Shown here piece after piece: positions 39,422 through 45,070 of a stretch of 64,000 bases of DNA; position 1 is the first letter of the stretch; each line of letters starts with the position of its first letter. This DNA comes from a plasmid, in NCBI RefSeq assembly GCF_053078305.1, contig NZ_CP166875.1; one strand, given 5' to 3'. The position numbers and the translations under genes were made by a program. The notes below the pieces were generated by a model. It was not told where the DNA came from, searched no databases, and saw only the letters and a list, made by a program, of their open reading frames with translations.

Positions 39422-39754
39422 TCAGCGTCCCATTAAATCTCTTCGCAGAGTATTAGCGAGTTCTGTAATAGCAACGAGAACCTCTGCATACTCTTTATCT
39501 CCCGTGCGTTTTCCTTCCACAAACAGATGCTTCTGCAGGCGACCAAGACGCATCAGCTCTTTCAAAAACTCTTCGTCAATGCGGGCATTTATCTGTTTTC
39601 CCAGCACAGTTTTTCTTATCAGAGTTGAAACTGTCAGTCCGTTTTTTTCTGCCTTTTCTCTAACAATCTCAGCCTCTTCTGGTGAAAAACGAACAGCAAT
39701 GAGGACATTCTTTTGCCGTTTCTCACTGCCACTTCGGGTTTTCTTCTCACTCAT
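39422..39754 (-). CDS. nikA: relaxosome accessory DNA-binding protein (NikA-like)
   Basis: 110 aa, basic; sits directly between relaxase gene and oriT-like inverted repeat. Confidence 0.65.
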   Translation of the reverse strand: MSEKKTRSGSEKRQKNVLIAVRFSPEEAEIVREKAEKNGLTVSTLIRKTVLGKQINARIDEEFLKELMRLGRLQKHLFVEGKRTGDKEYAEVLVAITELANTLRRDLMGR

Positions 39755-39794
39755 GGTCTGCTCCTTACCGGGGTGTCGGGGCTAAGCCCTGACC

Positions 39795-39855
39795 AGGTGG
39801 TAATCGTATAGCCGTGCGTGCGCGGTTATACGATTACACATCCTGTCCCGTTTTT
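39795..39855 (+). other. predicted origin of transfer (oriT): inverted repeat plus nick-region-like motif
   Basis: Inverted repeat GGTAATCGTATA (39799-39810) / TATACGATTAC (39827-39837) followed by ACATCCTGTCCCG, which resembles IncP/IncI-type nick regions. Confidence 0.5.
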
Positions 39856-39986
39856 CGGTCCATTATAGCCTGTTATTTTTGTGCATCATAGTCTTATGCA
39901 GACGGCAGAGGCAGGGCGCAGCCCTGCCAGGAGTCAGTTTTTGATGATAAAATCAGACTTCAACATGAAACGGAGAGAAAGTGCCA

Positions 39987-40322
39987 ATGGCTTCTAAAAA
40001 ATTTTACTCAGATGATGACATCCAGCTGGCAAAAGCTGCTTTATCAGAATTGCCGGACCTCACCGCTCAACGGAAAACATTGCGTGATTTTCTTGATGCC
40101 ATTCGTGATGACATTATTGTCCTGGTAAGGACAAAGGGTTATGCACTGGCAGATGTTCGTGACACGCTCAAAAATGCAGGGTATGAAGTAGGAGAGAAGG
40201 CACTTCGTGACATTATTCGGGAAGCAGAATCGAAAAAACCATCCCGCCGTTCTTCCTCTAAAACAGCACCTAAAAAGACAGATTCAGGCAGGAAAGATGG
40301 CATCGATATGAACAACAATTGA
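39987..40322 (+). CDS. hypothetical basic protein adjacent to oriT
   Basis: SD GGAGAG before ATG 39987; 111 aa; Lys/Arg/Ser-rich C-terminus. Confidence 0.4.
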   Translation: MASKKFYSDDDIQLAKAALSELPDLTAQRKTLRDFLDAIRDDIIVLVRTKGYALADVRDTLKNAGYEVGEKALRDIIREAESKKPSRRSSSKTAPKKTDSGRKDGIDMNNN

Positions 40323-40407: not shown

Positions 40408-41259
40408 TCAGACTCGTGGCGGCAATGCACCAGGATAATGCCGTGCAATAATATCATTCAGTTTTTCAACAAGGTCAGAACGCTTAAAGACAATGTGTAC
40501 GGTCCCTTTCTGGTAGCCACGCACCGTAAAATATTCCCCTTCTAACAGCTTACCGACATTGTCGCCGTTCCCGAGAAATTCACCGTACTGCGCCCCGATG
40601 CTGCTCCGGAAGTCAGGAACGTTGCGCCCCTCCAGCAGATAAAACGGACGTACCAGGTCATCCAGTGCCTCCCGTCCGCTGCAGTCCAGCGTCACACGCC
40701 CGTTACTCCAGCGGTACAGCAGGTTTTCAATAATGATTTTCTTACCCAGACGGCAGGGATTATTGGTTCTGTAATCCCATGACAATTTCCGGTAGACATC
40801 AATCAGTCCCTGTTCAAATGTTTGCATCTTACTGGCATTCAGATAGCGAAAAGTTGCCAGTACATTGTCCAGGGTGATTTCAGGACAGGTGTCGCTCATC
40901 AGCTGGCTGTTCCACTCATCACGCTGGCATGAACTCATGAAGGTGTACATGCCAGTATCCGTCATCAGGCGATCCCAGATTTTCCGGTCGGCAAGACGGG
41001 TGATATTCTTTTTTGCTTCTTCCGGTTTATCCATGCATCGAACGGAGTCAGTCACGCAGTCTTCAAACCCGTAGAGAAAAATGTCACCGGAAGCATCGAG
41101 CAGAATCCTGCGCGCTGTCGCCAGGCATTCCATCGCCTGCATGAACAGTGCAATACCTTCGTTACGCTGCGCGATAATGCGGTCGATGGCCACAGACGGA
41201 ATAATATCTGTCGTGCCGGCAGTATTCAGGTCAGCAGTGGGTAAAGTCTGATTCATCAC
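40408..41259 (-). CDS. hypothetical leading-region protein (283 aa)
   Basis: First minus-strand ORF downstream of hairpin element A1. Confidence 0.5.
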   Translation of the reverse strand: MMNQTLPTADLNTAGTTDIIPSVAIDRIIAQRNEGIALFMQAMECLATARRILLDASGDIFLYGFEDCVTDSVRCMDKPEEAKKNITRLADRKIWDRLMTDTGMYTFMSSCQRDEWNSQLMSDTCPEITLDNVLATFRYLNASKMQTFEQGLIDVYRKLSWDYRTNNPCRLGKKIIIENLLYRWSNGRVTLDCSGREALDDLVRPFYLLEGRNVPDFRSSIGAQYGEFLGNGDNVGKLLEGEYFTVRGYQKGTVHIVFKRSDLVEKLNDIIARHYPGALPPRV

Positions 41260-41269
41260 ATTGTCTCCT

Positions 41270-41660
41270 CATCGTCACGACTGCCGGGTCAGCCAGGTCA
41301 TTTCCCGGAGGAGCGAAGCTCCTTCTGCCGTCCGGGTCTTCGGGGATTTCCCCGCAGTGGACCTTTCCGATGGGGGCCCGTTTACCGCCTCACGGGACAG
41401 CTGTCCGGGGGCGGACGCAAAATTTTTAGCCGGGTTCATGGCTAAAAATTTTGTGGCCGGTGCATCTCACCCTGGACAGATGGAACGGGAGGGGGTTACG
41501 TCTGCCCCCTGGAAAGTCCACAGCGGGAAACAGGCCGCAGGGGTGGCGGCAGGAGGGAAGACTGCTGCGCCATCAGGCGCAGTTTCCTCACACACCGTCA
41601 GGTGTGCAGGGAGCGCAGGTCACGGCGCGACTGAAGAAAAACGACGGCACAACAATGGCA
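41270..41660 (-). promoter_or_regulatory. repeated hairpin element, family A copy 1 (Frpo/ssi-like ssDNA promoter candidate)
   Basis: Shares blocks with 44690-45070 and 60050-60420; contains perfect hairpin AAAATTTTTAGCC / GGCTAAAAATTTT. Confidence 0.4.
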
Positions 41661-41734
41661 TGTGGTGGTCACTGGCACACCACTCCCGCACAGGTGAAAA
41701 CAGAGAAAACCGCACGACATTTACAACCAAAAAA

Positions 41735-41820
41735 AAGTGAAATTTCTTCACTTTTTCACGCTTATTTTTCGCGTTGATTTGGTGATTATGATGATAAAAT
41801 AAAGTGAAATTTTTTCACTT
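41735..41820 (+). promoter_or_regulatory. two identical palindromes (AAGTGAA-N5-TTCACTT) flanking a putative promoter
   Basis: Palindromes at 41735-41753 and 41802-41820, AT-rich spacer with TTGATT; just upstream of the HTH gene. Confidence 0.4.
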
Positions 41821-41835
41821 TTTCAAAGGTGTTTT

Positions 41836-42087
41836 ATGACCGGCTGGGAACTGCGAATCTGGCGAAAAAGCATGCTCTGGTCACGCGAAAAAGCGGCCAG
41901 AGAATTTGGCGTGACGCAGAGAACATGGCACGCCTGGGAAAATGCGGAACAGGTGGATGTCACCGTCTGGAGGACCACCCAGGCACTTTCAGTCCGTGAC
42001 CTGCTGCCTCACATGCAGGGGATGCGTAAGGCAGATATCATCAGGCGTCTGGAAAATGAACTGGGGGAAACGGCAGGGAATGTGTGA
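41836..42087 (+). CDS. small HTH DNA-binding regulator (Cro/XRE-like)
   Basis: 83 aa; segment AAREFGVTQRTWHAWEN typical of an HTH; preceded by twin palindromes. Confidence 0.5.
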   Translation: MTGWELRIWRKSMLWSREKAAREFGVTQRTWHAWENAEQVDVTVWRTTQALSVRDLLPHMQGMRKADIIRRLENELGETAGNV

Positions 42088-42117
42088 GCGTGATTCACAG
42101 CCTGGCTGAATGCCAGG

Positions 42118-42324
42118 CTACTGCTCATCAGGAAACAGCTTTTTCAGTTCTTCACCGGAAAGTCCCGTGACCTCCTGAATCCGTTCCGGCGGCCAGCCTA
42201 TATCCCGCAGCCGGCAGGCTATTTCCCGCGCCACTTCAAGAACCCCTTGTTTAAAACCTTCTTTAAAACCTTCTTTAAAACCCTCGTCGAAACCTTTCTG
42301 TATAAGACGTTCTGCAATCGTCAT
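42118..42324 (-). CDS. stand-alone small protein resembling an Rpn C-terminal domain (RpnS-like)
   Basis: SD AGGAG before ATG; resembles the C-terminus of the adjacent Rpn (TIAERL..KG...TGLS.EEL.K); contains KEGF x3 tandem repeat. Confidence 0.45.
   Translation of the reverse strand: MTIAERLIQKGFDEGFKEGFKEGFKQGVLEVAREIACRLRDIGWPPERIQEVTGLSGEELKKLFPDEQ
42249..42287 (-). repeat. 12-bp tandem repeat x3 encoding (GFKE)n
   Basis: ttctttaaaacc repeated three times on the + strand. Confidence 0.8.
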
Positions 42325-42386
42325 GCTGTTTGCTCTGCTCCTGCTGGCAAAAAAGCCCGGGATTTTGCCGGGCTTTGTGGTTCTCA

Positions 42387-43301
42387 TCAGTGAGTGATTT
42401 TCTTCAGTTCGTCATCGGAAAGTCCGGTAGCCTGCTTAATCTGCTCCGGCGTCATCCCCATTTTCTGAAGCTGGCACGCAATAGCCAGGGCTTTTTCAAG
42501 CGCTCCTTCCATGCGTCCTTCCATCCTGCCTTCCTGGCGACCTTTTTGCTCAAGACGTTCTGCGATAGTCATCAGTTTATCCTCATGCTGCGGCAGACGC
42601 TCAGCCAGCGCCCGCATAAATTCCGGTGATACAGAGTCCCCTGCGTTAACGATGTAATGAATCAGAACACGCACCTGTTCATCTGAAATTTCCACCATGA
42701 CCTGCGGGAGTTTGTCCAGCAGCTCCATCATGTCACGATGGCGGATATGCTTCATCAGCAGCGTCAGTGCGGCCATCCGGCGATGGTTCATGATTTCATT
42801 GTCATCAACGACAGTGATATCAACCAGCGGAAACGGCTTTGTGTATATTTTAGCCGCAAGAGCCGGATTCTCAAAACAGCCCAGCCAGTTCATGCTGTAC
42901 GGGTACGGGCTGCGCTCACCGTGATAGAACAGCACCGGAATCACCAGTGGCAACGTTTTGTGCTGCTCCAGATGTCTCTGCATCGCCGCCACACTGTAAC
43001 GTAACATGCGAAAAGGCATGTACAGATTTTCGGTGCTCTGGTGCTCGATGAGCGTATAAACATAGCCGTCTTCACCCCCGGTGGTTTTCACGCTCCAGAG
43101 GATATCGCTGGCGTACTGATGCAGGTCCGGCTCTACAAAGGTGGCGGGTTCCAGCTTCAGCGTGGACAGGTCGCACAACTGCCGGTACTCCGCAGGAAGA
43201 TGCAGTTCCAGAAAATCTCTGGCGACGTCGGGATTCGCCAGGAACGACCGGAACGCGGCATCATGCGGCGTGGGCGTTGTGGTGTTTTTCTTCTTACTCA
43301 C
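42387..43301 (-). CDS. Rpn-family recombination-promoting nuclease (YhgA-like PD-(D/E)xK)
   Basis: 304 aa; N-terminal region typical of YhgA/Rpn proteins; C-terminal repeat domain QEGRMEGRMEG ... TGLSDDELKK. Confidence 0.65.
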   Translation of the reverse strand: MSKKKNTTTPTPHDAAFRSFLANPDVARDFLELHLPAEYRQLCDLSTLKLEPATFVEPDLHQYASDILWSVKTTGGEDGYVYTLIEHQSTENLYMPFRMLRYSVAAMQRHLEQHKTLPLVIPVLFYHGERSPYPYSMNWLGCFENPALAAKIYTKPFPLVDITVVDDNEIMNHRRMAALTLLMKHIRHRDMMELLDKLPQVMVEISDEQVRVLIHYIVNAGDSVSPEFMRALAERLPQHEDKLMTIAERLEQKGRQEGRMEGRMEGALEKALAIACQLQKMGMTPEQIKQATGLSDDELKKITH

Positions 43302-43687
43302 GGTTCCTCCATCAAATCAGCAGCATCGCAGCAATCATCGCCCAAATCCCCACAACCGAGAGGACAGCAATTGCGTTCAAAGCCATGACAACAATAGCCG
43401 CGTTCTGAGTCACGGCGTATTTCTTCAGCAATCTCTTCTGCGGAAAGGTAATCAAACTCCTCACGGGCCAGTTCCAGGACCAGTAGATGTTGTTCTGTCG
43501 GCAATGTGGCCACAAAATTATCAATAGCAGCACTCAAACGTCGCTGATATAGCTCATAAACAAGACCACAACGGGGCATTAGTTCTTCGGATAATAGTTC
43601 CAGTTTTGAGCGAATTCTGTCAGCGTTGAAAGTGACTTCATCAAAAGACATATGAAAAGCTTTGTCAGTATCAAAACAAGACTTCAT
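43298..43687 (-). CDS. hypothetical acidic protein with Cys-rich C-terminus
   Basis: SD GGAGG before ATG 43687; C-terminus CCHGFERNCCPLGCGDLGDDCCD. Confidence 0.4.
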   Translation of the reverse strand: MKSCFDTDKAFHMSFDEVTFNADRIRSKLELLSEELMPRCGLVYELYQRRLSAAIDNFVATLPTEQHLLVLELAREEFDYLSAEEIAEEIRRDSERGYCCHGFERNCCPLGCGDLGDDCCDAADLMEEP

Positions 43688-43863
43688 TGTTATCTCCAGC
43701 CCTCCCGGGCCCTGAATGAAAGAGAATCTGTTTCCCTTTTCTGTTTTTTGTGGAGACACCATGCAACACAGACGTCGTGATGTTTTTCATCTTGCTCACG
43801 GTTCCTCCTGGTAAAGTACCTGAACACATCCTGCCACCTGCACAGGCAGACGGCAGGGGTTAA

Positions 43864-44689: not shown

Positions 44690-45070
44690 GGGCCGACCGA
44701 TTGCTCCCCCGGAGGGGCGAAAGCCCCTTCTGCCGTCCACTTCTTCGGGGTTTCTCCCCGCAGTGGACCTTTCCGATGGGGCAGCGACAGCCACGGCACG
44801 GGGCAGTTGTCCGGGGGCAGACGCAAAAGTTTTTGACGCTTGCGGCAAAAAGTTTTGTGGCTGGTACATCTCCCCCCTGGACGGCTGACACGTGTTGTGG
44901 CCGCTTCAGCCCCCGGAAAGTCCACAGCGGGAAACAGGCCGCAGGGGTGGCGGCGGAAGGGCAGACAACTGCGCCATCAGGCGCAGTTTCCTTACACACC
45001 GTCAGGTGTGCAGGGAGCGCAGGTCACGGCGCGACAGAGGCGGCGCGACCGGAACGGTCGCTGCAAGCCT
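44690..45070 (-). promoter_or_regulatory. repeated hairpin element, family A copy 2
   Basis: Same ordered blocks as copy 1; hairpin CAAAAGTTTTTG / CAAAAAGTTTTG with TTGACG in the stem. Confidence 0.4.

Follow-up and report, generated by a model that had tools for sequence, protein, structure and literature searches.

In a 64,000-nt stretch of a plasmid (RefSeq assembly GCF_053078305.1, contig NZ_CP166875.1; hereafter the window), we examined a gene for an 83-aa helix-turn-helix (HTH) protein of the XRE type, together with two palindromes directly upstream of it that probably serve the protein as operators for repressing its own promoter. The window belongs to a plasmid of the IncK2/Z type (I-complex); the segment matches pL2-87 with 100% identity, and copies of more than 90% identity occur in about 2,000 I-complex plasmids. 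The gene is named ygeA in R64-type annotations, Hp21 in pESBL, and otherwise "XRE-family regulator". Identity with YgeA of the F plasmid, which is expressed from Frpo1 and was studied by Couturier et al. (PMC9849209), was rejected, as tblastn gave no match in F coordinates 52–68 kb. We found no publications describing the HTH protein or its palindromes, and the text of PMC12672017 does not mention the HTH orthologue. The features of the locus are as follows.

41735–41753, no strand: predicted distal operator O1, arms AAGTGAA and TTCACTT around the loop ATTTC, AAGTGAAATTTCTTCACTT
41774–41779, plus strand: candidate −35, TTGATT, weak, 15 nt from the −10
41792–41800, plus strand: extended −10 of the HTH promoter, TG-A-TAAAAT, TGATAAAAT
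41802–41820, no strand: predicted proximal operator O2, the same arms around the loop ATTTT, AAGTGAAATTTTTTCACTT
41825–41829, plus strand: Shine-Dalgarno sequence AAAGG, as read from the sequence
41836–42087, plus strand: HTH regulator gene, 83 codons

The two palindromes carry the motif AAGTGAA-N5-TTCACTT and lie 67 nt apart, start to start, just where the original prediction had placed them. That prediction also called them identical, which is true of the 7-bp arms and not of the loops, where one base differs (C vs T). Their likeness reaches into a 30-nt direct repeat (41729–41758 vs 41796–41825, 93% identity), and the perfect arms extend to 10 bp at O1 (41732–41756) and to 9 bp at O2 (41801–41821). 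When up to two mismatches are allowed, the 19-bp palindrome occurs three times in the window against 0.16 expected, a count reached by none of 100 shuffles. Both mismatches of the third match, at 43720, fall in the core, so that the conserved GTG/CAC core is missing, and we regard this match as chance.

The region has 71–75% A+T, compared with 48% for the whole window, and the AT-rich, promoter-like spacer that had been proposed between O1 and O2 was indeed found, with 71% A+T and the extended −10 TGATAAAAT. The last base of this −10 lies one nt 5' of O2, whose end is followed after 4 nt by the Shine-Dalgarno sequence and after 15 nt by the ATG at 41836. Transcription would start at about 41807, inside O2, with the centre of O1 about 63 bp upstream of this predicted start. 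Because the −10 is of the extended type, the −35 is probably dispensable.

The description of the product (ORF 41836–42087) as a Cro/XRE-like protein held up in a family-profile search and in the predicted fold, although the window protein itself scores below the Pfam thresholds. A profile of the family matches XRE-type HTH structures, the best being Aca2 (E 3e-6, over the N-terminal 52 residues), followed among solved relatives by HipB, MqsA, and other XRE repressors, and the NCBIfam models RstR, MqsA, and HipB weakly match many family members. The Pfam model HTH_31 was matched by all 37 aligned family members at E ≤ 1 (best E 1.2e-7), and the 37-sequence alignment has the signature MTG(Y/F/W)EL(R/K)LWR...W(S/T)QE(R/K)AAEELGVSLRTY..YE. 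The HTH family is small and distinct, since a HMMER search of 1.84 billion representative proteins returned 79 relatives at E ≤ 0.001. The AlphaFold2 model (pLDDT 90.8) is a compact helical fold of five helices (residues 3–12, 17–24, 28–35, 42–60, and 65–76), in which the second and third form the predicted HTH, with 28–35 (QRTWHAWE) as the recognition helix; the last two helices could mediate dimerisation. Nearly all of the top 30 Foldseek matches in the PDB are XRE-type repressors, with Aca2 first (probability 0.8–1.0, E 0.26–1; such weak E-values are usual for domains this small). The best sequence and fold matches, Aca2, HipB, MqsA, and SinR, are dimeric repressors that bind inverted repeats. 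The dN/dS of 0.08 relative to the 85%-identical pESI homologue points to strong purifying selection on the HTH gene.

Palindromes at homologous loci

From plasmid records and assemblies we took 14 loci that encode homologues of the HTH protein (30–100% protein identity). In all 14, the gene or its operon is directly preceded by a perfect or near-perfect palindrome, a recurrence that is not chance because perfect palindromes of comparable size number only 1.16 per kb in the window. Copies agree within a locus and differ between lineages, changing together with the protein.

Window and R64: AAGTGAA-N5-TTCACTT, two copies 67 bp apart
pESI: AAGTG(A/T)A type, two copies 67 bp apart
L004, L011, and L014: AAGTGCA-N5-TGCACTT, two copies 57 bp apart
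L013: AAGTGCA type, two copies 54 bp apart
L015: AAGTGCA type, three copies, 56 and 55 bp apart
L012: AAGTGCA type, one copy
L003: TGCAGA-W-TCTGCA, two copies 37 bp apart
L007: half-site GTGTCA, one copy
L017: half-site TGGGTA, one copy
IncL/M: half-site ATGTTCA, one copy at the gene

In nine loci the distance from the end of the proximal site to the start codon is 14–16 nt, with TAAAAT (or TTAAAT) immediately 5' of the site; besides the window, TAAAAT adjoins the proximal operator in R64, pESI, L004, L012, L013, and L014, and TTAAAT does so in L015. When the window and R64 are aligned with pESI, O1, the −10, O2, and the Shine-Dalgarno sequence are conserved, whereas the sequence separating the two operators is scrambled. 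Residue 28, with which the recognition helix opens, is Q in the AAGTGAA group but L where the half-site is AAGTGCA, suggesting a correlation between this residue and the half-site that we consider tentative, because pESI has L together with AAGTG(A/T)A. Operator centre-to-centre distances across the loci are 67, 57, 56, 55, 54, and 37 bp, and steps of 10 or 20 bp separate the main spacings of 37, 57, and 67. This is a hint of preserved helical phasing, although few independent lineages are involved.

Because the position of the palindromes is fixed relative to the −10 and start codon while their sequence tracks the protein, we consider it probable that the 83-aa HTH protein is an autorepressor acting through O1 and O2 at its own promoter. 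The autoregulation put forward in the original prediction is therefore well supported by the comparison of loci, with lineage-specific palindromes upstream in every one; its word "switch" is not, as nothing points to bistability. We suggest that a dimer on each 19-bp palindrome would turn the protein's own sigma-70 promoter off. At O2, which directly follows the TAAAAT −10 and covers the predicted transcription start, bound protein would exclude RNA polymerase, and O1, 67 bp upstream, would add affinity or cooperativity. We infer DNA binding, dimerisation, the sign of regulation, and its timing, and it is the sequence anatomy, conservation and covariation, strand logic, and fold that came directly out of the analysis.

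The same covariation bears on whether another protein, such as the product of a YggA-like gene, NikA, or a host factor, binds the palindromes, with the adjacent HTH gene being incidental. A yggA-like gene does co-occur in several of the plasmids, but the palindromes accompany the HTH gene even where no NikA or YggA is near, namely in the phage-like plasmid L007, in L017, and in pESI, where the locus lies beside an insertion sequence, and their sequence follows the divergence of the HTH protein. The gap between GTGA and TCAC is also 7 nt here and 6 nt in CRP sites. We therefore think binding by another protein very improbable.

Strand logic in the leading region

The leading-region setting that had been proposed for the gene was borne out by nikA (39422–39754, minus strand) and a nick motif at 39839–39846, beyond which the following features lie between oriT and the operators.

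39839–39846, plus strand: MOBP nick motif CATCCTG/T of oriT, with the presumed nick at the slash
39981–40322, plus strand: YggA-like gene of 113 aa, the first leading-region gene
41305–41640, minus strand: ssi/Frpo-like single-strand promoter element, which drives the DUF4942 gene (40408–41259, minus strand)

The nick position within the motif is presumed from R64/MOBP oriT sequences. The oriT also contains an 18-bp inverted repeat (39800–39837), and NikA and the relaxase are encoded to its left. Because the nick motif is on the plus strand, the sequence marks the plus strand as the one transferred and the region to the right of oriT as the leading region, in which the HTH gene lies 2 kb from oriT. 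The genes ardA, psiA, Rpn nuclease, and DUF4942 are all on the minus strand, and in this orientation leading genes are read off the incoming single strand, with ssi/Frpo hairpins as their promoters (PMC12672017, PMC10104558, PMC11541004). The sense strand of the HTH gene is the transferred strand, so by this strand logic its mRNA should be possible only after complementary-strand synthesis. Two such opposed-strand genes, the YggA-like gene and the HTH gene, lie within 2.5 kb of oriT.

The ssi/Frpo-like element is 83% identical to a second copy at 44708–45038 and folds strongly as single-stranded DNA (ssDNA; z = −10.2). No Rfam families were found in 38–50 kb, and two sub-threshold matches lie elsewhere. 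O1 begins, at 41735, about 95 nt after the end of this element. The end of the element and O1 are both spanned by a RefSeq 57-aa hypothetical ORF (WP_179943601.1, 41604–41777, plus strand; 65 aa in R64), which we treat as spurious because it shows no conservation beyond close relatives, pESI and the distant loci included. A tie to the Hft regulatory region of pESBL was rejected, since that region, situated between traA and repY, has no relation to this locus. We likewise rejected the idea that O1 and O2 pair with each other while the plasmid is entering single-stranded and so rebuild a duplex operator, as folding gave two separate local hairpins.

The opposed orientation is widespread, with the HTH gene standing alone and opposed to all of its neighbours in ten loci (the window, R64, pESI, L003, L004, L012, L013, L014, L015, and L017). 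The order relaxase, NikA, YggA-like gene, minus-strand leading genes, and HTH gene recurs in L004, L012, L015, and the window and R64. The genes on either side of the HTH gene vary between loci, with DUF4942, DUF5983, topoisomerase, and unknown genes upstream, and no conserved neighbour or partner gene was found across the compared loci. In this opposed-gene layout, a long, strongly structured non-coding element always lies immediately 5' of the operators; it is of the ssi/Frpo type in the I-complex plasmids and an unrelated conserved element in five other loci. The five copies of the latter (L014:601-1100, L012:3101-3586, L015:4276-4780, L004:4630-4830, and L013:3070-3290) are 75–94% identical to one another, and the L014 copy folds as ssDNA at −148.6 kcal/mol (z = −9.8), so that it may possibly represent another class of ssDNA promoter. 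The arrangement is partly the trivial outcome of an opposed gene inserted between two operons, though its constancy is still notable.

This strand logic suggests a timing for the autorepressor. The plasmid would enter single-stranded, and the ssi/Frpo promoters would fire while the duplex-requiring HTH promoter stayed silent. Once complementary-strand synthesis had passed through the locus, probably at an early stage since no more than 2 kb separate the gene from the strand's leading 5' end, the HTH promoter would fire in a repressor-free recipient. This burst of expression would last until the protein filled O2 (and O1), leaving a low, self-limited level.

The protein's main job might instead be to control a divergent minus-strand promoter in this intergenic region, through which the DUF4942 operon would be expressed in the duplex state and repressed as the HTH protein accumulated, in the manner of zygotic induction. 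A minus-strand sigma-70-like sequence, GTGAAA-16-TATCAT (41818 to 41791), does overlap O2, regulators of divergent genes are common, and the operator of the pOXA-48 homologue lies upstream of another operon's promoter. The minus-strand site nevertheless scores 9/12, about the level of shuffled sequence (0.7 expected), is lost in R64 (TATCAC), and has no counterpart in the AAGTGCA-type loci. An ssi promoter already serves DUF4942, and no divergent partner is conserved because the upstream neighbours differ between loci. We therefore judge control of a divergent promoter unlikely to be the protein's main job, and prefer autorepression of the HTH gene.

Downstream, the HTH gene converges with a minus-strand pair consisting of an Rpn-family (YhgA-like, PF04754) nuclease gene (42387–43301) followed by an 89-aa ORF (42118–42387), with overlapping stop and start codons. 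The 89-aa ORF is a diverged copy of the Rpn C-terminus (42140–42248 vs 42400–42508, 71%; 42281–42324 vs 42529–42572, 75%) and looks like a separately encoded partner of the RpnS type. A terminator scan found no canonical terminator between the HTH gene and this pair. Between the convergent stops of the HTH and RpnS-like genes lies a perfect 8-bp hairpin (42099–42119, AGCCTGGC-TGAAT-GCCAGGCT) with no T-run on either strand. We also observed start-codon surroundings repeated at 79–89% identity at 43259–43310, 43757–43808, and 39739–39757, which belong to the minus-strand genes for Rpn, a 154-aa ORF, and nikA; read on the plus strand as TTTTCTTCTTACTCACGGTTCCTCC, the repeat comprises a Shine-Dalgarno sequence, the start codon, and MSKKK-like codons.

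Targets beyond the gene itself

The original prediction had also proposed that the protein may control neighbouring leading-region genes, and on the window plasmid this was not borne out. We looked for further operators across the entire plasmid, in the window and in the other 23 kb of pL2-87 alike, with as many as three mismatches tolerated and half-sites counted as well, and found nothing credible; the divergent promoter is not conserved in R64. Judging by these searches, O1 and O2 at its own promoter are the only recognisable targets of the HTH protein on the window plasmid. The Enterobacter plasmid whose homologue is 48% identical gave the same picture, with no sites but its own two in 50 kb covering the whole leading region.

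Operators at several leading promoters, as expected of an establishment-type master repressor such as Reg576, ArdK, or KorA, were absent from the window plasmid and found only in pOXA-48. In pOXA-48 and other IncL/M plasmids, the gene for the homologue is part of a long operon that runs in the direction of the leading genes. A second palindrome in pOXA-48 (L018, NZ_OW970532.1; 37203–37220, ATGTTCATATTTGAACAA, one mismatch) stands about 45 bp upstream of a near-consensus TTGATA-17-TATAAT promoter before the ssb operon, so that control of neighbours, which fails for the window plasmid, does hold for this distant homologue. The ssb-operon promoter is also embraced by another inverted repeat, ACGTCTGATGAG...CTCATTAGACGT. 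This arrangement suggests that IncL leading genes are under repressor-controlled expression from duplex promoters.

Several points weigh against autorepression as a full account. The candidate −35 is a poor one, spaced 15 nt from the −10, and because some homologues have neither a good −35 nor a TG extension, the promoter assignment leans mainly on the conserved TAAAAT. The window protein falls under the Pfam gathering thresholds (HTH_31, 23.7 bits against a cutoff of 27, E 6e-5; HTH_3, 16.5 against 23). A regulator that targets only itself has no evident selective value, and so something is missing from the account. In pESBL, neither plasmid maintenance nor transfer from E. coli to E. coli suffers when transposons insert into the orthologue Hp21 (68116–68367), which TnSeq scored as non-essential with probability 1.00 (PMC4288162). 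Finally, the palindromes can fold as A/U-flanked RNA hairpins, overall at −7 to −12 kcal/mol, which would allow a terminator role.

Such hairpins could mean that the palindromes work mainly through RNA or DNA structure, as insulators or intrinsic terminators acting in both directions where two minus-strand leading operons meet. They would keep read-through from the Rpn operon, and antisense transcripts of the HTH gene, out of the ssi element, DUF4942, oriT, and nikAB, and would be operators either not at all or only in part. An A-run and a T-run flank each palindrome, the minus-strand RNA of O1 has a fold of −10.6 kcal/mol with Us after it, the more GC-rich versions in L014 reach −11 to −12 kcal/mol (z −4 to −5), and no canonical terminator stands between the convergent HTH and RpnS-like genes. 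Terminators, however, need no shared sequence between the copies of a locus, nor would they need the AAGTG...CACTT core that persists across lineages with unrelated flanks. A working terminator at O2, between the −10 and the start codon, would abort the HTH mRNA; because the predicted start lies inside O2, the hairpin should be absent from that mRNA, which folds at −3.2 kcal/mol (z = 0). The terminator scan did not pick out the stems in the window, which have only two G-C pairs. We thus argue from sequence that termination is not the primary role of the palindromes and would give it little chance as their main function.

The autorepressor may have a further role on host targets or in blocking transcription across the operon boundary. 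One version, which we regard as unlikely, is a duplex-state gate, in which the HTH promoter would be among the first conventional promoters active after complementary-strand synthesis. The opposed orientation, kept in at least ten lineages and always right behind a large hairpin element of one of two unrelated, ssDNA-promoter-like classes, would then serve one of two ends. The burst of repressor, together with the hairpin-forming operators, may block or insulate transcription toward oriT and nikAB, or host genes may be the protein's targets in trans, with the protein giving a first "I am now double-stranded" signal. On the preferred reading the gene encodes an ordinary self-repressing regulator, unusual only in its orientation opposed to the early-expressed genes.

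Homologues were found in 3,696 of the 72,556 PLSDB plasmids, including IncI1/K/B/O/Z resistance plasmids, Salmonella pESI-like plasmids, and IncL pOXA-48. Leading-region genes are known to be expressed from single-stranded DNA (PMC9849209, PMC11541004, PMC12672017), and those studies leave unexplained the few conserved genes that point the opposite way, a question made directly testable here by the predicted operator, promoter, and timing. The homologue loci are also predicted to form a natural set of orthogonal operator-repressor pairs. If the protein regulates only itself it is an ordinary small repressor. What makes the module notable, to a modest degree, is its spread in clinically important plasmids and its conserved opposed orientation amid a region otherwise given over to single-strand expression.

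Comparison with known systems

The top sequence and fold match of the HTH protein is Aca2 of Pectobacterium phage ZF40 (PDB 7vjo, 7ezy, and 7b5j), with which it shares the N-terminal motif MTxxELxxxR...AAxxxGVSxRxxxxxExG. Aca2 acts as an HTH dimer that represses its own gene, where one inverted repeat overlies the promoter and a second follows just downstream (PMC6765145), and two inverted repeats were also found in the promoter region here; both proteins are encoded on mobile elements, at loci expressed on entry. The C-terminus of Aca2, however, is a distinct alpha/beta dimerisation domain within about 120 aa in total (PMC8434428), whereas the 83-aa HTH protein (against 115–125 aa) ends in two helices and a disordered tail, with a TM-score normalised to the Aca2 target of 0.39–0.42. 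The model Aca2_YdiL (PF08965/DUF1870) does not match the window protein and matches two of the 37 family members at E 0.016. The Aca2 repeat core is TTCG-N6/8-CGAA, unlike AAGTGAA-N5-TTCACTT, and no acr or other gene is co-transcribed with the HTH gene, which keeps its single-gene layout in ten loci. The second Aca2 repeat forms an RNA hairpin in the 5' untranslated region, whereas a start inside O2 would leave the hairpin untranscribed here. By these sequence comparisons the HTH protein resembles the DNA-binding domain of Aca2 but is not an Aca2, since Aca2_YdiL is unmatched and the C-terminal alpha/beta domain is absent.

The Cro/CI- and antitoxin-type XRE proteins HipB, MqsA, SinR, and RstR share the five-helix XRE fold, dimer-palindrome recognition, tandem operators, and negative autoregulation, but come with a partner toxin, antirepressor, lysogeny module, or co-transcribed gene that is lacking here. 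No adjacent co-transcribed toxin of the type II kind was found, the neighbours being on the opposite strand and variable between loci. The protein could still be the leftover of a two-gene system, either a repressor of the Aca kind whose anti-defence partner is gone or an antitoxin of type II (HipB-, MqsA-, or HigA-like) for a toxin encoded elsewhere. Its best PDB matches, Aca2 (profile E 3e-6) and then HipB, MqsA, and HigA, fit such an origin, as do the weak matches of the NCBIfam MqsA and HipB models to many family members, the richness of leading regions in anti-defence genes (PMC11541004), and the adjoining Rpn nuclease and RpnS-like genes. The HTH gene, however, shares its operon with no other ORF, since O2 lies right before its start codon and the genes beyond it run toward it (true of ten loci), and Pfam Aca2_YdiL is not matched. 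The tolerated insertions in the pESBL orthologue argue against an antitoxin of an active toxin (PMC4288162), and the strong purifying selection argues against a decaying remnant. We consider an orphan origin highly doubtful.

As a plasmid autorepressor in the first-entering region, the HTH protein also resembles Reg576 of the Bacillus plasmid p576, whose repressor-timed establishment scheme is shared by ArdK (IncW/IncN). The Reg576-controlled promoters fire in a repressor-free recipient and are then shut down (PMC6294495). Reg576, however, is a ribbon-helix-helix protein with operators at four establishment promoters, compared with an HTH protein whose operators on the window plasmid lie at its own promoter only, and, unlike in the Reg576 and ArdK schemes, the genes neighbouring the HTH gene use ssDNA promoters. 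YggA/Orf35 of I-complex and IncM plasmids likewise has the transferred strand as its sense strand and lies within the first 2.5 kb of the leading region, and the pCTX-M3 YggA homologue Orf35 behaves as a repressor of nikA and tra genes (PMC6112013), but it is unrelated in sequence and has neither a recognisable DNA-binding motif nor palindromes like O1 and O2. The HTH protein is thus best filed as an uncharacterised addition to the familiar class of small XRE autorepressors.

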